61,698 nt of DNA, filler included, from Basidiobolus ranarum (GCA_040143965.1; 21 parts of 21 records of this genome joined end to end with filler, not necessarily neighbours in it), one strand, 5' to 3'; shown: positions 5,694 to 55,730, counted from the first letter of the whole stretch. A program made the numbers and translations. The notes: generated by a model from the letters alone, not told the origin.

Positions 5694-5766
5694 CGAGGCG
5701 CATGGGACTCGAACCCACAATCCCCAGATCCGAAGTCTGATGCCTTATCCATTAGGCCAACGCCCC
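5694..5766 (-). tRNA. tRNA-Arg (anticodon TCG)
   Basis: 73-nt cloverleaf GGGGCGT...GCGCCTC-G, anticodon loop CTTCGGA, T loop TTCGAGT, TTTT terminator downstream. Confidence 0.95.
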
Positions 5767-7263: not shown

Positions 7264-7603
7264 TGTTGAAATTAGCTTTGCTTAAGCACCTATATAGTCA
7301 TATATAACTTAGTATTAGCTATCTTACATTTCACCAAAATATTATCCATCATTATCAATTGGAATTTACCTAGAATATTTTTACCAACTTAGAAGTTCTC
7401 AGATACATAGATTTTCAAACTGGTGCTAGAAAACCCAAGCATTGCACACATGTTTCTGGGACCTTCCTCAACAAATTCTACACATTAGTTTACTTACATC
7501 ATGATAAAAGTATAAATGTCAACTTTCTACTCAATAAATCATTAAGTGAAATTCACCAATTTCTCTGATTCTCCACATCACTTCTAACATGCTCTCAAAA
7601 ACA
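7264..7603 (+). mobile_element. 3' LTR, copia family B
   Basis: TGTTGAAATTAGC start directly after the PPT; at least eight related copies in the window. Confidence 0.9.
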
Positions 7604-7828: not shown

Positions 7829-7860
7829 AAGGGCAACATGATGGTTAAGATGGCATATTT

Positions 7861-8142
7861 TGTTGAAAGTGTGGTCACTTGTGGTACAAGCAGTAATTCC
7901 CAAAGAGGAAAAAATGGAGTATGGTGACTGCATCTGAACACAAAGTCTAAGGCCAATCAGTTGCTTGTATAGCTGAAATGCCAAAGTACCATACATTGAC
8001 AGACTAGGTTAAGATTCCCTAGCAGTATAGGCATAGCATACAAGGACTGGTAGCTCAGTGGTTAGAGCACCTTGCTAGAGTGAAGGAGGCCCCAGGTTCA
8101 AATCCTGGCCAGACCAATATTTATCCCTAAATAATTTCAATA
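7861..8142 (+). mobile_element. Solo LTR (family T, 282 bp) containing a tRNA-like gene
   Basis: TGTTGAAA...TTTCAATA termini; 5-bp TSD TATTT at 7856-7860 and 8143-8147; gap-free alignment to 22361-22642 (27 differences by hand count). Confidence 0.92.
8044..8116 (+). ncRNA. tRNA-like sequence inside the LTR (isotype uncertain)
   Basis: Acceptor GGACTGG/CCAGACC, D arm GCTC-AGTGGTTA-GAGC, T arm CCAGG-TTCAAAT-CCTGG, A box TAGCTCAGTGG, B box GGTTCAAATCC. The anticodon arm is imperfect. Confidence 0.88.
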
Positions 8143-8340
8143 TATTTAGCTGTGCACATGGACTATCATGGGAGCTAGGTTATGTAAAAAAAGCACTTAT
8201 ATATGTTTTATTGTGTAGGTAGCAGCTAAAACTGTGATATCTTAAGGGTCTTGTCAGGTGTCTCAAGGATGCAATAATCATGGTTGAATAACTCTGGAAT
8301 GAACTGTCTCTTGCCTCTTGGGTCTGTATGACAAAGAAAT

Positions 8341-14769: not shown

Positions 14770-16198
14770 AAATTCAATATCGATGAGCCATTTGAGATAG
14801 GATCAAAGTTTAAATCAATGGGGAAAATGCTTGAAAACATCAAGATACCATCAAATTTTACCAGGACTCCCATCAATATCCACTCATCTAGGCATTTATT
14901 CAAATACAAAGACTGGAAATATTGGATTTGTATATATTCAAGTGGAATCTTGAAAAGAATTCTGCTGGATAAGTATTGACAATATTGGGAGTTGCTTGTT
15001 GATATTGTTAATATATTCTTATGGCATCAACTCACATTGGCAGGTATCAGGCAGATACAGTGACGGCGCAAAGATTTGGTAATTGAATATGAAAACTTTA
15101 TTACAGGTTTAAAGAAAATAGACTGAATCTATGCCTGTATTCAAAACATTCCCTGCTGCATCTTTCACAATGGTAGAGATTATAGGCCGTTGCTATACAT
15201 TCTGGGAGTTCCCAATGGAACACACCTGTGGCCAAATGATGCTCTATGAGAAATTGTCAGTATAACCATATGCTAATCTGATTAATAATGTATCAGCAAA
15301 ATCAGTGATGGAAATAATGTGATGGGTTGAGCAGATTCCAGAGTATATTAACCTTCCAACAAAGGGCTCTTTTCAATGTGCTTACAGGTATTCACATTGT
15401 TTGAGCACAATAACAGCAACAAGACCCAATCCATGGACACAGAGTAAGTACCACTATAATTTGGACTAATTTGTTTGTGTAACAACCTGAGAGTATTTTT
15501 AGGAAAGCTGCAAGACAAACTTCTTAGCAAGATAGATCAAGATATGCAGTGCTATAGTCTTAGCCTTGAGCTAATCTATTCAAGCAATGGCACATCTACT
15601 TGTGGCAGGACATTTGTTGACTGCAAGTTGGGGATATATTGGCTGAATTCTTTACAGAAATATACCAAAATCCAAGCACATATTCTCATTGTGAGTGGTA
15701 TCAAGAGTCAGCTATTTGCCAAGTGTCAGTGCCCTTCAAAATCTCAGATATTTAGCAATTTTTCCACTGTCAGTTTGCTGGTGAAGAATATTGATGTTGT
15801 TGAGTTATGTCTGATCAGCCAAGTATATGCATATGTAGATACAAAACACAATAAGATCCCTGTATTTTTTGATTCTCATTATGGCAGGAATAAAAAGCCA
15901 AAAATATCCAAATAAACACATGCATAATAATTTGAATTCCAATAGCAGTAAACCCAGTAGCTTGCCATTCAAAAATTATATCTTTGCAAAAATTGCCAGA
16001 AATTAATAACACCTGCTAAATAAGAGGATGACTATTTTAACATGTACAAATACCATCATAATAGCATAAAGAAACTGCTGTCACACCATCAAAATCCCTT
16101 GCAGAATACAAGCCACTGATATTTTGATGGTTCTCAGACATTTTGAAATTTAGAAGGGTGGATCCAATCCGGATGAAATTGATTTAATTTTGTTAGGG
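14770..16198 (+). mobile_element. CACTA/EnSpm-type transposase C-terminal half plus element end (...TTTTGTTAGGG)
   Basis: KDWKYW, GRCYTFWEFPME motifs; the terminus matches the reverse complement at 53183 and 53372. Confidence 0.85.
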
Positions 16199-17619
16199 TA
16201 CTATCCAAATACAAGATTAAACTCCATGCTTTTACCATCAATAGCCTGGTCAGATTTCAGCATGATCCCTGATATCAACTCACCAAACAGTCAGTCCAAC
16301 ATGAAACTTGGTATTAGCCATAATCCAAAGATTATATTGCTAAAGGTGATCAGCTGGTGCCAGAGTTTCCCATCAGGCACTATGCACATAATGATCAACA
16401 ACATTCCAATGCTACTTGCTCTGCAATATGGTGGAAAATTCAAAATGAATGAGCTATCTGAAATAGGATCAAAGCTTGAATCTATTGTGAAAATGCTTGA
16501 AAAGGTCAAGATACCATCATGTTTTACCAAGACTCCCATCAATATCCACTCATCTAGGCATATATTCAAATTAAAGGACTGGAAGTATTAGACATATACA
16601 TATTCAAGTGGAATTTTGAAAAGTTTTCTGTCTGATAAGTATTGGCCACATTGGGAGTTGTTTGTGGAGATTGTCAATATATTCTTATGGCATCAACTCA
16701 CATTGGCAGATCTCATGCAGATATAGCAACTGTGCAAAGATTTTGCAATTGGATATGAAAACTGTATTACAGGTTTGAAGAAGATAGACTGAATCTACAC
16801 CGCTATTCAATACATTCCCTGCTGCATCTTTTGCGATGCTTAGAGAATATAGGCCCTTGCTATACACTCAGGAGTTCCCAATGGAGTGCATCTGTGGTAA
16901 CATGATGCTCTGTGTCAAAATGTCAGCATTACCATATGCTTATCTGATTAACAATGTAGTAGCAAAATCAGTGATGAATGCAATGCAATGGGTAAAGGGG
17001 ACTCCAGAGTATATTAACCTTCCAACAAAGGGCTCTTTTTAATATGCTAATGGGTTTTTGCATTGTCTGTGTACAATAACTGCAATAAAGCCCAATCCAT
17101 GGACACAGAGTTAATATCTCTATAATTTGGACTAATTTGCTTGTGTAATAATCTGATGGTATTTCAAGGAAAGCTGCAAGACAGACTTCTTGGTCAGATT
17201 GATCAAGATATGCAATATTATTATTTTAGCCATGAAGGAATCCATTCAAGCAATGATACATCTACTTGTGGCAGGACATTTGTTGACTGCAAGTTGGGGA
17301 TATATTGGCTGAATTCCTTACAGAAATTTGCCAAAATCTGAGAGCATATTCTCATTGTGAATGGTAACAAGAGTCAGCCATTTGCCAAGTGTCAGTGCTG
17401 TTCAAAATTTTGGATGTTTAGCAATTTTTCCACCATTGGTTTGCTGGTAAAGCATAGTGATGTTGTTGAGTTAGGTCTGATCAGTCAAGTATATGCATAT
17501 GTAGAGACTAAACGCAACAAGATTCCTGTATTTTTTGATTCTCATTATGGCAGGAATAAAAAGCCAAAAATATCTGAATAAAGGCATGCATAATAATTTA
17601 AAATCCCTACAGCAGTAAA
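16199..17619 (+). mobile_element. Second CACTA-type transposase copy, interrupted by the preceding copy
   Basis: Resumes mid-gene right after GTTAGGG; TMH, KDWKY and EFPMECICG motifs. Confidence 0.85.
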
Positions 17620-18714: not shown

Positions 18715-19600
18715 AGGCACTGTGGTTTTGTGCTTAAAATACACATATTCTGGATCAGACTTTGATCTGATGGGTTATTCAGATGCAAATTGGGGAGGAG
18801 ATATTGAAGACAGGAGATCTACAACAGGATACTTCTTTCTTTGCTGTAATGGAGCTATTTCTTGGAATTCACAGAAACAAGCTACCATATGTTGAAATTG
18901 GCATTGCCCAAGCACCTTTATAGTCATATATGGCTTAGTACTTAGTTATCTTATAATTCTCTAAGATATTATCCATTATTCTCAATTGGAATTTACTCTG
19001 AATATTTTACCAACTTAGAAGTTCTTATATATATATTTTTCAAACTTGTGCTAGAAGCCCTAAACTTTGCTCCAATGCTCCTGGGACCTTCCTTAACACT
19101 TTCTACATGTTAGTTTGCTTACATCTTGACATAACTATAAATATCAACTTTTTACTCAATAAATCATTAAGTGAAACCACCAATTCCTCTATTTCTCCAA
19201 ACCACTTCTAACAGGCTCCCAGACACTTTAACACCATAGCACTCTCAGCAACAGAAGCCAAATATATGGCTGCCTGTGAAGCAACAAAAGAAGCAGTATG
19301 GGTAAGAAAACTCTTAACAGATTTGAGTTATTCTCAAAATTCACCAACCACATTATTACAAGATAATCAAAGTTGTATCAAATTATCAAAAAATCCCACA
19401 TTTCAAAATAGAAGAAAACATGTAGATGTTAAACATCACTTCATTAGAGAGGCTGTAGAGAATAAGTTTATTGACTTAACTTATTGTTCTATAGAAGACA
19501 TGATTGCTGATATACTAACCAAACTATTAGCTAGACAGAAATTTGAGAAATTTAGACCTTGATTAAGATCAGTTTATATGACTATTTAGTTGAGGGAGAG
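18715..19600 (+). mobile_element. Ty1/copia RNase H (family B), split by a nested solo LTR
   Basis: YSDANWG..RRSTTGY..ISWNSQKQ | ALSATEAKY..DNQSCI..KHVDVKHHFIRE; PPT at 19588-19600. Confidence 0.92.
18890..19233 (+). mobile_element. Solo LTR, family B, with TSD
   Basis: TGTTG...TAACA flanked by CCATA at 18885-18889 and 19234-19238. Confidence 0.93.
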
Positions 19601-19947
19601 TGTTGAAATTAGCATTGCCTAAACACCTATATAATCATATATAGCTTAGTACTTGGTTATCCTATAATTCAGTAGGTTATTATCAATTATTCTCAATTGG
19701 AGTTTACTTAGAATATTTTTGCCAACTAAGAGGTTCTCAGATATATATATTTTCAAACTCATGCTAGAAGCCCAAAACTTTGCATACATGTTCCTGGGAC
19801 CTTTCTTAACACATTCTACATGTTAGTTTGTCTACATCTTGATAAAACTATAAATGTCAACTTTCTACTCAAGAAATCAATAAGTGAAAACCACCAATTC
19901 CTCTAATTCTTCAAACCACTTCCAACAGGCTCCCAAATACTTTAACA
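19601..19947 (+). mobile_element. 3' LTR, family B
   Basis: Follows the PPT; TGTTG...TTAACA. Confidence 0.92.
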
Positions 19948-20027
19948 GGTAAGTAGATGGTCAACCCAAAATGGATCAAAGTTGTTATGGTTTTCTTACA
20001 ATAACCATCCTCAAATTTCTGTTAGGG
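19948..20027 (+). mobile_element. Terminal 80 bp of the GTTAGGG-ended DNA element
   Basis: Matches 6282-6360 and 50731-50810. Confidence 0.75.
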
Positions 20028-20706: not shown

Positions 20707-22360
20707 ATCACAAGCACATTCATTGTACACAGCCAACAGCTGCACAAAGCATGGTGTATAACAACAGCAATAAGTGCACTAAATTGACTTTAATTTTGCC
20801 CATTGAGTCCACTGACTGCACTTTGCCTCAAAGTTTTGGTAATACTGCCAAAAGTCAAGATACCACGGAGTTACCACAGTTATATGATCAGAATGATATA
20901 GGTAGAAATGCAACTTTGGTCAAACCAGCTAGTCCAGACAACATTATATATCAGAAGTTGAAGAAGAAGACAACAGTTTTGTTATGGACTCTTTGTTACT
21001 AGGAAACATTAGTCCACTCACATCACTTACTGTAAAGGAAGCAGCTTTGATTATTGAGGAGTGGAGAGTTCAATCCAATCTTAGCAACCAGGTTTTATTG
21101 GTTTTCTTACACTTTTACCACAGTTGATTGGCAACTGCTGCTTGCCACAGACCTGGTACTAGTGGAAAACACTTGTCAGTCATATGACTTATAATCCTTC
21201 AGTAGTCAAACTGCCTTCATGTCCAAATGGTTGTTTGGCTTCCACCAGCAATCTTAAGAACCTGCAGTCATGTATGGTTTGCACACAATTGGCAATCACT
21301 GAATCAGGTAAATATTGTTCATATTAGGCTTACATACTTGTGATTCTCCTTCTCAAAGTTATGATGAAATCATCCAAACATAGATCATTGATCCAATACC
21401 TAAGTACTCACTGTAACACTAATGGTATTACCAATAGACTTGGTGGATATCACTACCAGAATCTGAAGAATCAAGATTTCTTTGAGAACATGTATGATCA
21501 GGTATTTAACTTGGCTTTGGATGGTTTCTCACTACACTAATATACCACTGGAAAGACTTGCTGGCCAATAATTTTAATTAACTTAAATCTTCCTCCTTCT
21601 GAATGGTATAAGAGTCAGAATATTGTGATACTATCCATCATATCTGGACCTAAATCACCAGTGCTTATAAAGAGTTTCTTACAGCCTTTGATTGTGGAGT
21701 TTGAATGGTTATCTAATGGGAATCAGATGGATGAATATTTATTAAAGCTAATATCATTGCATGTATTGGTGACACTCCTGCCATTGGTAAACTTGGAGGT
21801 TTCTGCCAGCACAATGCACTATGTTGCTGTAGACTTTGTCAAGTCAATGGAATATACTCTATCAGGCAAACACATTACTCCTATCCAAATCCAACACTAA
21901 ACTCCATGATTTTACCATCAAGAGCTTGGTCAGATTTTAATATGATCACTGATATCAATTCAGCAAATAGTCAGTCTAACATCAAACTTGGTATTAGCCA
22001 TAAGCCTAAGATTATATTGCTAAAGGGGATCAGTTGGAGCCACAGCTTGCCATTAGACACTATGCACTTACTATTCAACAACATTCCAATACTACTTACT
22101 CATCTATATAGTGGAAAATTCAATATAAATGAGCCATTCTAGATTGCATTAAAGTTTGAATTGATTGGGAAAATGCTTGAAAACATCAAGATACCATCAT
22201 ATTTTACCAGGACTCCCATCAATATTCACTCATCTAGGTGTTCATTCTAATGCAAAGACTGGAAGTATTGGATTTGTATATATTAAAGTGGAATTTTGAA
22301 AAGATTTCTGCCTGATAAGTATTGGTAACACTGGGAGTTGTTTGTTGATATTGTTAATAT
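20707..22360 (+). mobile_element. CACTA/EnSpm-type (Transposase_21/Tnp2-like) transposase, degenerate
   Basis: CPNGC..C..C, LALDGF, WPIILINLNLPP, GPKSP..SFLQPL, GDTPA and DTMH motifs; cut at 22360 by the family T LTR. Confidence 0.88.
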
Positions 22361-22642
22361 TATTGAAAGTCTGGTGACTTGTGGTGCAAGCAGTAATTCC
22401 CAAAGAGGAAAATACAGAGTATGGTGACTGCATCTGAACACAAAGCCTAAGGATACTCAGTTGCTTGTATAGCTGATATGCCAAAGTATTATACATTGAC
22501 AGATTAGGTTAAGGTTCCCTAGCAATATAGGCATGGCATACAAGGACTGGTAGCTCAGTGGTTAGAGCCCCTTGCTAGAGTGAAGGAGGTCCAAGGTTCA
22601 AATCCTGGCCCGACCAATATTTCTCCCTAAATAACTTTGACA
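22361..22642 (+). mobile_element. 5' LTR, family T (tRNA-containing)
   Basis: 282 bp, colinear with solo LTR 7861-8142, ends in CA, directly followed by PBS-like GGTTGCAAGCCCC and gag. Confidence 0.92.
22544..22616 (+). ncRNA. tRNA-like sequence inside the LTR
   Basis: Four differences from 8044-8116; A and B boxes identical. Confidence 0.88.
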
Positions 22643-22673
22643 GGTTGCAAGCCCCACACTTGCACTCTCTGTA

Positions 22674-23515
22674 ATGTCTACTTCTCAAATCTATAGAACT
22701 TTTCCCTCATCCAAAAAATTGGATGGAACCAATTATCAAGTTTGGAAGATTAAAATGAAAATGCTGCAGCAAGAAAAAGGACTTTGGGACATGGCTGTAG
22801 GAGAAGAAAACAATGCAAAACTCTTTGAAACCAAAGTTTTACTCGAGGTTAAAAATGAACAATATGCCTTTAACACAATTTGTCTTGATGTTAAAGACAA
22901 ATTACTAATTCAATGTTCAAAAGCTAAAACTCCCAAGAAGGTATGGAAAGCATTGGAAGACACCTACCAAACAAGTTCTGCTGCCAACAAGATGGTTCTA
23001 AGAAGACAAGTCTTTAACTTACAGATGAAGCCAGGAGAAGAAATTAAATCACTAATTAATTGAGTCACCATTTTAGTGGATCAAATGGAATGCATTTAAG
23101 TACCTACTACTGATCAAGATATCATATTTACAGTCCTGAACAGCCTGCCACAGAAGCTTCAGAGCCTAGTAATAGCTCTAAAATCAAAAACTGAAAATTT
23201 GACCTTAAATTATAAATTTAGCAGACATCTGGATGAAAATGTACAAAAATCAGGATCCAACCAAAAGAATGAAGAAAATGCTTTAATAGGCTATGGGAAA
23301 CCTTCCTATAAAGGTCCAAAGCACTTTTAGAAGAAAAGTAACAAATTCTGTGATTACTCTAAAAGAACTGGCCATTTAAGCAAAGATTCCTTTAAAAGAA
23401 TTGCAAAGAAGAAAAACATACTGAATCTGGAAATGTGGTTACAACAGAAGATCACTTGTTCATTTCTGCTCTTTCTATGACTACCAACAAGGATTCTCAG
23501 ACATGGTATATTGAT
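22674..23515 (+). mobile_element. Ty1/copia gag, degenerate, up to the protease WYID motif
   Basis: KLDGTNYQVWKIKMKM; decayed CCHC knuckle; near-identical to 29507-29791(-) and 53004-53182. Confidence 0.92.
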
Positions 23516-29506: not shown

Positions 29507-29822
29507 TTCCAAGGCTTTCCATACCTTCTTGGCAGTTTTAGCTCTTGAACATTGAATTAGCAATTTGTCTTTAACATTAAGACAAATTGTGTTAAAGGCA
29601 CTTTGTTCTTTTTTAACCTGGAGTAAAACTTTGGTTTCAGATAGTTTTGCATTGTTTTCTTCTCCTACAACAGTGTCCCAAAGTCCTTTTTCTTGCAGCA
29701 GCATTTTCATTTTAATTTTCCAAACTTGATAATTGGTTCCATCCAATTTTTCAGAAGAGGGAAAAGTTCCATAAATTTGAGAAGTAGACATTACAGAGAG
29801 TGCAAGCTTGGGGCTCATAACC
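29507..29822 (-). mobile_element. Copia PBS (29810-29822, GGTTATGAGCCCC), leader and gag start (ATG at 29791)
   Basis: Same gag and leader as 22643 onward, but attached to LTR family B. Confidence 0.92.
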
Positions 29823-30172
29823 TGTAAAAATATTTGGGATCCTGTTGAAAGTGGTTTAGAGAATTAGAGAAATTAGTGGTTTTCACTTTTTGATTTATTA
29901 AGTAGAAAGTTGACATTGATAGTTTTGTCAAGATGTGAACAAACTAACATGTAGAATGTGCTAAGAAAGATCCCAGGAAAATGGGTTCAAAGTTTGGGGC
30001 TTCTAGCACAAGTTTGAAAAATCTATATATCTGAGATTTTCTAAGTTGGTAAAAATATTCCAAGTAAATTCCAATTGAGAATAATGGATAATATCTTGGT
30101 GAATTATAAGACAACTAAGTAGTAAGCTATATATGACTATATATAGGTGCTTAGGCAAAGCTAATTTCAACA
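29823..30172 (-). mobile_element. 5' LTR, family B
   Basis: TGTTGAAATTAG...TTTTACA on the minus strand, abutting the PBS. Confidence 0.9.
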
Positions 30173-31858: not shown

Positions 31859-33508
31859 AAGGTTTTTCTATTGAGATTAAGTGGCACAGCAAGTCTTAAT
31901 CAAGGATGTAACAATGTTACCATATTTGGGATTCTAACTAATTTGATGTCTAATTTTAGTCAGTTACTCATCAGGCATAATGATATAATATTAATAATAA
32001 ATATAATACTACTACTTGGTCTATGTTTTGTATAAACTTCAATGATCAAATGCATAGTATGATCAGTCTATGTTTTATATAATACAATAATAATACCAGG
32101 TCATCAAGTGTTCATCCGAGAGTTGGTGACTACTTACGTAACTTGATAAGTCTATAAGATAGTGATCTTGAGCTTTCACCCAAGTCTATTGTACATATTA
32201 TAGTAAAATAACCAGGCTATCATTAAACAACCAGGCTATCAATTTAATAGCATTTTGATTGCGGTTATTTTACTTGATTATAACTATTCAGTTAGGATAG
32301 TTACATAAATTTACGTCAAAATCCTTTAGCTACAAGTACGCTGAAAGANNNNNNNNNNNNNNNNNNNNNNNNNNNNNNNNNNNNNNNNNNNNTTAATTAA
32401 TTAANNNNNNNNNNNNNNNNNNNNNNNNNNNNNNNNNNNNNNNNNNNNATCCACTGACAGGATTCAATATTTTATTTATCGCCAAAGTGACCAATAGTGA
32501 GCAACTACAAATTCTGCTCTTACATTGGCCAAAGATCCCGTTTGCCCTGTACATTGGTATTTACTGGGGTAGGGGAAGGTCAAACATTGGGTAATGCAAG
32601 TCCCCTTCTTGAGGTAACCTTGGTCCAGGTTAGTTCTTTCCGAATGTGGCAAAGTGGCTCGGCTAAAGCTAATCGATGATCTGTGATCAAGATTTTCTTG
32701 CGATGAAACTGATGCCTGTCGATCTGAAACCTAGAGCCATATGGGTTATCCAATCCTGTTTAACCGATAGATGTTTTAGGATCAGCTTTTCCGCTTTCCA
32801 CTTTTCCGCCTTTTATCGAGGTAAGATAATAGAAATATTTAGAAATAGTTACAAGGGTCAGAAGGACTGACACTTATCTGTCTAGGTGCTATCTTTAATG
32901 CTCAAAGATTAGGTGCCATCTTTATTCATTTTATCCTCAGAGTTCTTCCCATTGCCAATTATGATTCGGTAAGCTAGTTAGGTAAGTTAGCTAGAAATCA
33001 AATTTAGTTCCTATTGTTGTTGAGTCTTTGGTGTAGGAGATAGGTTCGAAAATTAAAATATCCAAAGACCAATAAATATTATTCACGTTGCAAATAAGGA
33101 GCTTTGCATCGAATACCTACCGCTTATGCCAGGCTGCTCTTTTGGTAAAAGTGCAAAATATTAGCCATTTGATTGGTCAAAGATAGGCAGTTGATCATTT
33201 CGGTAATAGTACACTCTTCCTTACAATACCACTACTACTTATCTCGGGCTGCTCACTTGGTAAGAGCCCAGAGTCTTGGCTATTATGATTGGTCAAAATG
33301 GGCTATGGTCAGAGTCATTCCGGTAAGAGCACACTATTCCTCATGGGCTCATGGGCTAGTTATGGGTTTGTGGTAATCAACTTGCTCCTTGATATCTCAA
33401 TACGTCGGATCTAACTGCAAATACCTTTGTCAACAATCCTTTTGTTGAAAATGACATAGCTTAAGCATTTATATAGTCATACAATTAGCTTCCTAAATCT
33501 CACCTTGT

Positions 33509-34220
33509 TATTGCTCAATATTGTCATAAAGAAATAAATTGAAGTATTGCAACCAACTTGGAAGTTTCAACATTATACTGAAATAAATGGTGGCAATATA
33601 GCTGGCTCTTATCATACTGCAAAGGGCGATAATAGCAACGGAGATGGAAACACTGGTACTGGAAATGGAGGAGACAACGGCAATCGCAACAGCGGCAATG
33701 AAGCTGACATTTATGATACGGGAAAGGGTGGTGATACCAATGGAGATGGAAACGGTGGTGTGAAAAATGGAGGAGACAATGGTAATGGCAACGGTGGCAA
33801 TAGAGCTGGATCTTACGATATTGGAAAATATAGTGATGAAAATCGTCAAGATAACGGTGATACTGGCAATGGAGCGAGGCACTTATGATACTAGAAAGGG
33901 TGATAGTGGCAATAAAAATAGTAAAGGTGGAGCTAGGAACCGAGGAGACAATGGCAAGTAATGGAACCAGCACTTTTGATGCTGGAAAGGGTGGTAATGG
34001 AAATGGTGATGGTAAAAGTGGTTCTGGAAATGGTTGGGATAATGGCAATAGCATGGCGCATATGATGCTGAAAAGGATGGAAATGGTGCTGGCAATAGAG
34101 GAGAAAATTGCAATGGCTAGTTGAGACAGTTGCAACGGAGCTGGTGCCGATAATGCTGGAACAGGTGGTGATGGAAACAGTGGTTCAGGTAATGAAGGAG
34201 ATATGGGTTACGGGGGATGA
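33509..34220 (+). pseudogene. Gly/Asn/Asp-rich tandem-repeat protein, frameshifted
   Basis: About seven units of GNxAGxYDxGKGGxGNGDG...; unit starts at 33589, 33691 and 33793 (102-bp period), later units shorter and out of frame. Confidence 0.7.
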
Positions 34221-37523: not shown

Positions 37524-38226
37524 TTAGCCAGACTTACTTTTCAGATTATTGTAGTGATATCCATTAAGTATATTGGTAATAACATGAGCTTTATTGTGAG
37601 TATTTTGGTATTGGATTAATGATCTATCTTTGAGTGATTTCATCAAAACTTTTAGGTGGGGAATTAATGGTATATAAGTCAAATATGAACAAAATTTACC
37701 TGATTCAGTGATTGCCCATTGTGTGCAAAAAGTACATGACTTCAGGTTTTTCAGATCACCAGTGAAAGCCAAACAACCATTTGGATATGAAGGTAGTTTA
37801 CCTACTGAAAGATTATAAGTCCTACAATTGACAAGTATTTTCCACTTGCACCAGGTCTGTGGCAAGCAACAGTTACCACTCAACTGTGGTAAAAGCGTAA
37901 GAAAACCAATAAACATCTTGTTGCTTTGATGTGATTGAACTCTCCTTTCTTCAGTTATCAAAGCTGCTCCCTTTACTGTCAGTGTTATGAGTGGACTAAT
38001 GCTGGCCAGTAATGAAGAGTCCGTAACAAAACCGCATCTTCTTTTTCAACTCCTGACATACTACCATCAGTACTGGAACAAATAAGATCTGCATTAAGAA
38101 GTATGTTGTCAAAGTTGTCCGGATTTACTGGTTTGACCAAAGTTGCATTTCTATCTACATCATTCTGGTCATATAACTGTGGTATTTCCATGGTATCATG
38201 ACTTTTGGCAGTGTTACCAAAACTTT
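37524..38226 (-). mobile_element. CACTA-type transposase N-terminal fragment
   Basis: PNGCLAFTGDLKNLKSCTFC; homologous to 1-460 and 20830-21470. Confidence 0.8.
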
Positions 38227-53182: not shown

Positions 53183-55730
53183 CCCGTAACAAAGATAAAA
53201 TCAATTTGATCCGGATTGGATCCACTCTTCTAAAGCACAAAACCATCAGAGAACCATCACAATATTTGTGGCTTGCTTTCTGCTAGGGATTTTAATGGTG
53301 TGATGGTGGTCTCTTGACAGTATTTTGACAGTATTCATACATCTTAAAATATTGATCCTCACATTGGGCATCCCTAACGAAAAAAAATCAATTTGATCTG
53401 GATTGGATCCACCCTCCAAAATAGCAAAGCCATCAGAGAACCATTACAATATTGGTGGCTTGCATTCTGCCAGGGATTTTGATGGTGTGATGGTGGTTTC
53501 TTGATGGTATTTTGATGGTATTCATACATGTTAAAACATTGATCCTCAAATTTGGCATGCATTATTGAATATCCTGCAATTTTTGAAAAAAATAATTTTT
53601 GAATGCCAAAATACTGGGTATACTGCTGTAGGCATTTGATTTAATATGCATGCTTTTACTTAGATATTTTAGGCTTTGTATTCCAGCCATTATGAGAATC
53701 AAAAAACACAAGAATCTTGTTGTGTTTAGTCTCTACATATGCACATACTTGACTGATTAGACATAACTCAACAACATCAAATTGCTTTACCAGCAAACTA
53801 AAGGTGTAAAATTGCTAAATATCTGAAATTTTGAATAGCACTAACACTTGGCAAATAGCTGACCATTGTTACCATTCACAATGACAATAAGCTCCTGGAT
53901 GTTTGCAAATATCCGTCAAGAATTCAGCCAATATATCCCCAACTTGCAGTCAATGAATGTTCTGCCACAAGTAGATGTGTCATTGCTTGAATAGATTACC
54001 CCATGGCCAAAACAATAATACTGCATATCTTGAACTCTCTCACAAAGTCTATCTTGCAGCTTTCTTAAATATTTTGTCAGATTATCACACAAGCAAATTA
54101 GTCTAATTATAGAGGTACTTATTCTGTGTCCATGGGTTGGGCTTTGTTGCTGTTATTGTGTTCAAAGAATGCAAAAACCCATGAGCATGTTGGAAAGAGC
54201 CTTTTGTTAGCAGGTTAATATACTCTGCAGTTTCCTTAACCCATTGCATTACATCCATCGCTGATTTTGATGATACATTGTTAATCAGATTAGCATATGG
54301 TAATACTGACAATTTTATATGGAGCATCATTTCACTGCAGGTGCACTCCATTGGGAACTCCCAGAATGTATTGCAAGGGCCTATAATCTCTAAGCATTGT
54401 GAAAGATGCAGCAGAAAATGTATTGAATACCAGGGTAAATTCAGTTGATCCTCTTTAAACCTGTAATAAAGTTTTTTGTATCCAATTACAAAATCTTTGC
54501 ACAATCACTGTATCTGCCTGAGATCTGCCAATGCAAGTTGATGCCATAAGAATATATTAACAATATTGACAAATAACTCCCAATGTTGCCAATGCTTATA
54601 AGGCAGAAATCTTTTCAGAATTCCACTTGAATATATGTATGTATATAAATATTTGAATAAATGTCTATATGAGTGGATATTAATGGCAGTCCTGGTAAAA
54701 TTTGATGGTATCTTGATGTTATCAAGCATTTTCCCAATCAATTCAAACTTTGATCCTTTCTTGAATGGCTCATTGATATTGAATATTCCACTATACAGCT
54801 GAGTAAGCAGTATTTGAATGCTGTTGGATAGTGAGTGCATAGTGCCTAATGGGAATCTCTGGGTCTAGCTAATCCCCTTCAGCAATATAATCTTAGGCTT
54901 ATGGCTAATATCAAGTTTGATGCTAGACTGACTATTTGGTGAACTGATATCAGTGATTATATTGAAATCTGACTGGGTTCTTGATGGTAAATTCATGAAG
55001 TTCAATGTTGTATTTGTAAGTAGTAATGCATATGCCTGTTAGAGTAAACTCCATTGATTTGACAAAATCTACAGCAAGATAGTATATTGTGCCCACAAAA
55101 ACCTCCGTGTTTACTGATGGCAGGAGTGTCACCAATACATACAATGCTATTAGCTTTAATTATATATTCCCCCTTTGGAACCCCATTGGATATGCATTCA
55201 AATTCCACAATCAAAGGCTTCAGCAAGCTATCTATAAGCACTGGTGATTTAGGTCCAGATATGAATGATAGTATCAAAATATCTTGACTCTTATACTGAC
55301 CAGAAGGAGGAAGATTTAAGTTGATTAACATCATTGGCCAGCAAGCCTTTCCAGCAGTTTATTTGTTTAGTGACAAACCATCCAGAGCCAATGCAAATGC
55401 ATGATCCTATGTGTTCTCAAAGAAACTTGACTCTTCAGATTCTGGTAGTGGTATCCATCAAGTATATCATAACACCATCAGCTTTATGGTGAGTACTTTG
55501 GTATTGGATCAATGATCTATATTTGGGTGATTTTGTCAAAACTTTAAGATGGGTAATCAATGTAAGCCAAATATGAACAATATTTACCTGATTTAGTGAT
55601 TGTCAATTGTGCGCAAACAGTACATGACTTCAGGTTTTTGATATCCCTGGTGAATGCCAAACAACCATTTGGACATGAAGGTAGTTTAATTACTGAACAA
55701 TTATAAGTCATATGATTGACAAGTGTTTTC
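53183..55730 (-). mobile_element. CACTA-type element: duplicated terminus (53183-53371, again from 53372) and most of the transposase
   Basis: CCC(G)TAAC...GGATTGGATCCAC termini; INLNLPP, GPKSP, GDTPA..GFCGHN..CCRFC and GPCNTFWEFPME motifs. Confidence 0.88.

Follow-up and report, generated by a model that had tools for sequence, protein, structure and literature searches.

A Ty1/copia-type family in Basidiobolus ranarum (GCA_040143965.1) has a genuine 282-bp long terminal repeat, here called LTR-A, that carries an inherited tRNA-derived module. The stretch of DNA analysed (the window; 61,698 bases, filler included) comprises 21 contigs of 2,830-2,855 bp (~2.85 kb), sorted by size and separated by spacers of the form N44-TTAATTAATTAA-N44. 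LTR-A is present on contig 3 (5911-8764; copy 1) and on contig 8 (20669-23515; copy 2). The design is already in print (2024); what is new is the host lineage and the joining of a tRNA-bearing LTR to a coding Copia interior.

Sequence reading and alignment place copy 1 at 7861-8142 (+ strand), where it opens with TGTTGAAAG and closes with TTTCAATA. The pentamer TATTT (+, sequence reading) is found on its left at 7856-7860 and on its right at 8143-8147, bearing out the solo LTR with a perfect 5-bp target site duplication (TSD) described in the first-pass annotation. The chance of such a 5-bp match at fixed borders is ~0.0014, calculated from the base composition of the window. In the flanks of 7861-8142 there is no primer binding site (PBS) after the repeat and no polypurine tract before it.

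Copy 2 is located at 22361-22642 (+), as judged by alignment and by an empty site. It aligns to copy 1 without gaps, contig 8 against contig 3, so the second gap-free copy noted earlier on a different contig is real; the two differ at 27 of 282 bases (9.6% divergence). The ends of LTR-A are of the TG...CA type with a short terminal inverted repeat, seen in the start of copy 1 (TGTTGAAA) and the end of copy 2 (TTTGACA). One end is mutated in each: copy 2 starts with TA... and copy 1 finishes with ...ATA. Copy 2 is inserted in a DNA transposon of the Transposase_21 type, and an empty site corresponding to its left border was observed in 3/3 paralogues of this surrounding transposon. These paralogues (14770-15014, 16201-16680 and 55092-54554) match contig 8 up to ...GTTAATAT and go on with their own sequence beyond that point, where contig 8 enters LTR-A. 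Because the paralogues are uninterrupted there, the 5′ border of copy 2 is independently confirmed. The 5-bp TSD and the empty site together identify LTR-A as a genuine mobile LTR, which has transposed at least twice by a Copia-type mechanism. We note that decayed copies of the Transposase_21 (tnp2) transposon lie at 21541-22360, 14770-17619, 54505-55358, 2-334 and 37524-38045 (Pfam 4.3e-09; ORFs), the copy at 21541-22360 being the insertion site of LTR-A copy 2. A sensitive BLAST search of the 61,698-base window gave no further copies or fragments of LTR-A. Outside the tRNA part, a 21-mer of LTR-A had 0 exact matches in metagenome contigs, and a 22-mer likewise matched nothing exactly among prokaryote genome contigs or among viral contigs (0 each).

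The tRNA-like segment is 73 nt long, lies in sense orientation and occupies the same LTR position in both copies, at 8044-8116 (+; LTR positions 184-256) in copy 1 and 22544-22616 (+) in copy 2. ARAGORN calls a tRNA in each. The Rfam tRNA scores are 58.6 bits for copy 1 and 43.8 bits for copy 2, relative to a gathering score of 29 bits and to 57 bits for an apparently genuine tRNA-Arg of the window. The minimum-free-energy fold of copy 1 is a cloverleaf, as the earlier reading of LTR positions 184-256 had proposed; that of copy 2 is not, its cloverleaf being partly decayed. All 4 changes in copy 2 weaken pairs or junctions, lowering the score from 58.6 to 43.8 bits. A motif scan combined with sequence reading located the A box TAGCTCAGTGG at 8051-8061 (+; LTR 191-201) and the B box GGTTCAAATCC at 8095-8105 (+; LTR 235-245). 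Both boxes are identical between the two copies, as previously stated, and stand at tRNA spacing. The acceptor stem and the anticodon stem each contain one non-pair, that of the anticodon stem corresponding to the imperfect anticodon arm seen at first pass. The anticodon is AGA (Ser), but the segment has the short variable loop of class I, whereas serine tRNAs of eukaryotes possess a long variable arm. The pairing of an AGA anticodon with a short variable loop thus indicates that the segment is not a serine tRNA, in agreement with the earlier view that it does not decode.

The tRNA-Arg (anticodon TCG) is found at 5694-5766 (-), 44 bp from the end of contig 2, and adjoins a P5-type ATPase gene split by introns, whose fragment matches B. 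ranarum best (82%), followed by B. meristosporus (78%). An ABC-G transporter fragment in the window has its best match in Basidiobolus meristosporus (82%), ahead of Umbelopsis and Bifiguratus (75-77%). These two host genes indicate an early-diverging fungus of the Basidiobolus vicinity; a rust, which the Helenus literature had suggested as a host, was rejected on their evidence. Contig 12 contains tandem 78-nt units (33508-34207) encoding Gly/Asn/Asp-rich peptide repeats.

The first-pass annotation had also observed that no T4 run precedes the LTR end, and we found none in either copy of LTR-A. A Pol III transcript could therefore span all of LTR positions 184-282. Beyond the segment of copy 1 the first T4 occurs at 8206, 90 nt downstream. 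The segment ends 26 nt short of the LTR end and 6 nt short of a ~20-nt terminal block held in common with a second LTR type, LTR-B. Rfam searches of the window revealed no other tRNA-like relics (E<=1) and no 5S match (gathering score and E<=1).

The tRNA-like segment is a heritable part of the LTR-A family that has been inherited through at least two insertions. It is not a one-off event confined to a single copy: two copies that have diverged by 9.6% and reside at unrelated loci carry it, gap-free, at an identical position. Conservation of this part, or of its boxes, above the neutral rate is not supported. The hand counts of 4/73 differences inside the tRNA part and 23/209 outside it were reproduced exactly, and the contrast between them is not significant (Fisher p=0.25, n=2 copies). 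Zero changes in 22 box positions at 9.6% divergence has a chance of ~0.11, and the invariance of the boxes is thus not evidence of selection. Since dead copies decay neutrally regardless, a comparison of two such copies is uninformative about the master copy. The observations of the first-pass annotation are confirmed in every detail, and its interpretation, right in kind, is partly supported.

The element to which copy 2 belongs, as its 5′ LTR, is an old and dead Ty1/copia retrotransposon that bears gag; by its coding content it is not a miniature non-coding element. A PBS-like sequence, GGTTGCAAGCCCC, directly follows the LTR at 22643-22655 (+), as seen in the sequence and by comparison with the sister element described below. 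A Copia gag, located by Pfam, tblastn and translation, begins 31 nt past the LTR and extends to the start of the protease (WYID) at 22674-23515 (+). The gag domains are Retrotran_gag_2 (2.7e-17) and DUF4219 (5.5e-07). The region contains 3 in-frame stops and 1 frameshift and reaches the contig end at 23515, so that the contig does not include the 3′ end of the element. The internal region is thus at least 873 bp long and comprises a full-length though broken gag, a degraded zinc knuckle and then WYID; by tblastn the 873 bp are colinear with residues 2-290 of P0241. In a gag protein search P0241, which comes from an ENA assembly, was the only database relative, with 63% identity over the first 129 residues, and the lineage of this gag is poorly represented in protein databases. 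A search for the gag locus in metagenomes returned only 3 distant loci, with 38-57% identity over short stretches; these gave no tRNA-like call and no LTR-like repeats related to the LTR-A family. The same search in viral contigs returned none. Our link between LTR-A and gag relies on one 2.8-kb contig of a fragmented assembly. The gag-bearing copy has T4 runs at 22700, 22837, 23071 and 23325 and, if these terminate, no full-length Pol III RNA could be made from it.

A sister of this element is found on contig 11, on the minus strand, where sequence comparison locates a tRNA-less 5′ LTR of 350 bp (LTR-B; 29823-30172; no tRNA match at E<=1), a PBS GGTTATGAGCCCC (29810-29822) and the N-terminus of gag (29507-29791). 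From the first base after the LTR the sister and the internal region of contig 8 are 91.8% identical over 316 nt without a gap, while BLAST and alignment indicate that the interiors of LTR-A and LTR-B are unrelated. The two LTR types have in common only their first 8 nt (TGTTGAAA) and their last ~20 nt, the end reading CTCCC(T)AAATA(A)CTTT.ACA in LTR-A and CTCCCAAATACTTTAACA or similar in LTR-B. LTR-B is the commoner type in the window, with 8 copies or fragments as against 2 of LTR-A. The LTR-B copies are 83-90% identical among themselves, and an Rfam search at E<=1 gave no tRNA-like part in any of the 8. Shared termini, PBS region and interior combined with unrelated LTR bodies would be expected if the same integrase and reverse transcriptase handle both types. 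The sister pair changes the picture, in that it would point to an exchange of LTRs within a Copia lineage instead of a non-coding TRIM.

Other LTR-B insertions were located in the window. A solo LTR-B at 18891-19233, with a 5-bp TSD (CCATA), lies in the RNase H end of another Copia pol, whose 3′ LTR-B is at 19602-19948. On contig 3 a 3′ LTR-B (7265-7599, +) abuts an inverted partial LTR-B (7827-7611, -) that begins 33 bp before solo LTR-A copy 1, and this area is thus a nest of insertions. The start of contig 19 (53004-53184) holds gag sequence with 90.6% identity to contig 8, resuming about where the gag of contig 11 (29507-29815) stops; contigs 11 and 19 may be neighbouring pieces of one element.

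The PBS of the sister holds the complement of the anticodon CAU. By analogy we take it for a site pairing with the initiator tRNA-Met at its anticodon loop, a type described in the parts of Kojima 2024 (PMC10886601) used here. Relative to this site, the PBS of the LTR-A element has all three anticodon-pairing bases changed (ATG to GCA) with the flanks kept, and the first 20 nt account for 5 of the 26 internal differences (post-hoc binomial P ~0.011). The change, seen in one copy only, may be a switch of primer tRNA or a cluster of mutations. An in-frame ATG within the PBS (MSP...), upstream of the MST... start, is present in the sister (29790-29822, -) and in P0241; this PBS ATG is lost in the LTR-A copy. 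Self-priming by the tRNA-like part was considered and rejected, since no stretch of 8 nt or more in the LTR is complementary to the PBS region. An origin of the segment by primer read-through was also rejected: on the scheme of reverse transcription it would leave an antisense tRNA downstream of the LTR, not a sense one inside it.

Helenus, which the first-pass annotation had named as a parallel, is in print and fits. The portions of Kojima 2024 (PMC10886601) on which we draw define these elements as TRIMs with tRNA-derived sequence in their LTRs; this sequence has conserved A and B boxes, and most of the tRNAs predicted from it are non-functional. Fungal Helenus have a 5-bp TSD and a PBS pairing with tRNA anticodon loops, including that of tRNA-iMet. 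They are described there as probably Copia-dependent; one example shares internal sequence, not LTRs, with Copia, and up to 198 bp of 5′ internal sequence is held in common. The fungal hosts in Table 1 of that paper are Pucciniales and two Agaricomycetes species, to which its text adds Amylostereum areolatum. The screen covered elements <1000 bp only; Helenus are short, the longest measuring 1263 bp, and have a non-coding internal part bounded by a PBS and a polypurine tract. The same portions of the paper state that 'not a few' Repbase LTRs hold tRNA-like pieces, that the Helenus design has lasted >100 million years in other lineages, that inflated tRNA-Ser-AGA predictions in rusts trace to Helenus, and that TRIMs driven by Pol III should have LTRs different from those of their autonomous partners (PMC10886601). 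In the parts consulted, PMC13537249 and PMC13570524 cite Helenus and have no other bearing on the tRNA-bearing LTR described here. Beyond Kojima 2024 and the papers citing it, our literature search gave no report of an LTR with a tRNA-like part, whether on a coding element or in an early-diverging fungus.

Set against these descriptions, LTR-A matches the Helenus/TRIMp3 design on every LTR-level feature compared. It has a sense tRNA-derived segment with box A and box B motifs as given in PMC10886601, a predicted tRNA that would be non-functional because anticodon and structure disagree, and the 5-bp TSD of fungal Helenus. The PBS of the element appears to be of the tRNA anticodon-loop type, its internal part is homologous to Copia with an unrelated LTR, and the ARAGORN call of 'Ser-AGA' echoes the tRNA-Ser-AGA predictions of rusts. 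In the only LTR-A copy that has an interior, this part measures at least 873 bp and holds gag and the beginning of the protease, so that the copy falls outside the TRIMs as defined in the parts of PMC10886601 used here. The host belongs to the early-diverging Basidiobolus lineage, whereas those in the sections cited are rusts and a few agarics, and the termini of LTR-A, unlike those described there, are common with the LTR of a coding partner.

Cassandra resembles LTR-A in having a small-RNA gene with an internal Pol III promoter embedded in the LTR and copied along with it. It differs in being a plant element with 5S in place of tRNA and, as PMC10886601 describes it in the part used, with a conserved Pol III terminator in the LTR, where LTR-A lacks T4. 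Cassandra and Ajax, both 5S-derived, are excluded in any case by the absence of a 5S match in the window. A tRNA-derived SINE (SINE2) is likewise a mobile element using a tRNA-derived A/B-box module, but its tRNA head is 5′, its tail is LINE-related or A-rich and it moves by target-primed reverse transcription. LTR-A does not belong to this class either, since its tRNA part lies close to the 3′ end and the unit has LTR ends and a 5-bp TSD and is accompanied by a PBS and gag. No SINE body or tail adjoins the tRNA part, the 26 nt that follow being the shared LTR terminus. Drosophila copia and yeast Ty5, as portrayed in the portions of PMC10886601 cited, have a copia-type gag and a 5-bp TSD; as we read it for the sister element, their PBS, which adjoins the 5′ LTR, is complementary to the anticodon-loop region and not to the tRNA 3′ end. 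Their LTRs differ from LTR-A in being ordinary Pol II LTRs without a tRNA-like segment.

As to the role of the tRNA part, the likeliest, to which we give an even chance, is that of an inherited internal Pol III promoter module that is mobilised by Copia proteins. The segment would act as an internal type-2 Pol III promoter with a start near LTR position 184, and R-U5 would consist of the tRNA-like segment plus the end recognised by integrase. The RNA would be primed at a PBS of the anticodon-loop type and the cDNA inserted by a Copia integrase that coding relatives of LTR-B type would provide. That the two LTR types would use the same mobilisation machinery is suggested by the PBS and copia-type gag that directly follow LTR-A and by an interior 91.8% identical to that of the LTR-B element. 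From the gag-bearing copy Pol III would yield a short RNA only. Since T4 runs would limit the Pol III RNA, this copy is most likely a recombinant between a tRNA-LTR element and an autonomous partner, or else dependent on Pol II. Several observations count against a Pol III promoter: the gag-bearing interior of at least 873 bp, if T4 terminates; the argument on unshared LTRs made in the part of Kojima 2024 cited above (PMC10886601); the lack of a Pol III terminator in LTR-A, unlike Cassandra as described in the same source; and the p value of 0.25, the loss of the fold in copy 2 and the box chance of ~0.11, all from only two copies.

The tRNA part may instead be a passive passenger, a tRNA gene or cDNA captured once in the ancestral LTR-A and copied since, with no role in transcription or transposition. 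The lack of significant excess conservation, the decaying cloverleaf of copy 2 and the inability of the gag-bearing copy, given its T4 runs, to rely on Pol III for full-length RNA would all agree with this, as would the 'not a few' Repbase LTRs with tRNA-like pieces mentioned in the portions of PMC10886601 we cite. We nevertheless regard it as rather unlikely, because both boxes are intact in both copies, the 73-nt unit still scores as a tRNA at 9.6% divergence, its location just before the U5 end would suit a transcription start, and the same design has lasted >100 million years elsewhere, according to that source. Two copies cannot by themselves tell a passenger from a Pol III promoter, as dead copies decay neutrally. 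If the LTR is transcribed by Pol II, the tRNA fold or DNA could act in other ways, either as an R/U5 RNA element (RNase P/Z processing, packaging, 3′-end formation) or as a TFIIIC site (anti-silencing shield, tRNA-gene-seeking integration). Pol II would be needed for gag, the cloverleaf of copy 1 does fold, and TATAG at LTR 108 and 166 with AATAA at 270, near the LTR end, are weak hints that would fit Pol II initiation within the tRNA part or ahead of it, with polyadenylation where the LTR ends. Such short motifs are expected by chance in AT-rich DNA, a cut by RNase P inside the 5′ leader would strip the cap, and self-priming is improbable for want of the 8-nt complementarity noted above; a Pol II origin with some other use of the tRNA part is in our judgement unlikely.

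The remaining alternatives concern the nature of the element and of the segment. The LTR-A/gag junction on contig 8 could be an assembly chimera, the real LTR-A element being a short non-coding TRIM of the Helenus type with the same PBS and leader as the Copia, to which the assembler joined it through that leader. The assembly is very fragmented, with contigs of ~2.85 kb, the Helenus examples given in the part of PMC10886601 used have as much as 198 bp of 5′ internal sequence in common with Copia, and a PBS unit of separate origin would agree with the clustering of 5/26 internal differences in the first 20 nt. The contig 8 interior is, however, 8% off the sister throughout and identical to no other copy in the window, no shared identical stretch is visible that might mislead an assembler, and homology with the sister begins exactly at the LTR border; a chimera thus appears quite improbable. 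Finally, a working tRNA gene spread by the retrotransposon would account for the intact boxes and for a copy 1 score (58.6 bits) equal to that of the genuine tRNA of the window (57 bits). It would have to read serine codons through AGA with a short variable loop and tolerate non-pairs in the acceptor stem (1) and anticodon stem (1); no T-run is close by, the first T4 being at 8206, and the fold is lost in copy 2. We consider this highly improbable. The even-odds reading of the tRNA part as an internal Pol III promoter module concerns its function; a further proposal concerns the ancestor, namely that a once-autonomous Copia was flanked on both sides by LTR-A and so was a coding element with a tRNA-type Pol III promoter beside its Pol II promoter. 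This is doubtful, though a real possibility.

LTRs with tRNA-derived modules (Helenus/TRIMp3) would, with LTR-A, extend from rusts and agarics to early-diverging fungi. A tRNA-bearing LTR on a coding Copia interior was judged unlikely in the portions of the describing paper cited here (PMC10886601). A sister that differs essentially only in its LTR makes the origin of such elements testable, between LTR exchange or parasite-partner recombination on the one hand and insertion of a SINE into a TRIM on the other. In practical terms tRNA-bearing LTRs inflate predictions of tRNA genes, and both ARAGORN and Rfam call tRNAs here. Were the coding element indeed flanked on both sides by LTR-A, the change from ATG to GCA in the PBS would mark a simultaneous switch of primer tRNA, and the element would belong to a lineage near Basidiobolus, from which none was known before. 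It would then be the missing intermediate toward miniatures of the Helenus type, with exchange for a tRNA-bearing LTR coming first and internal deletion later.
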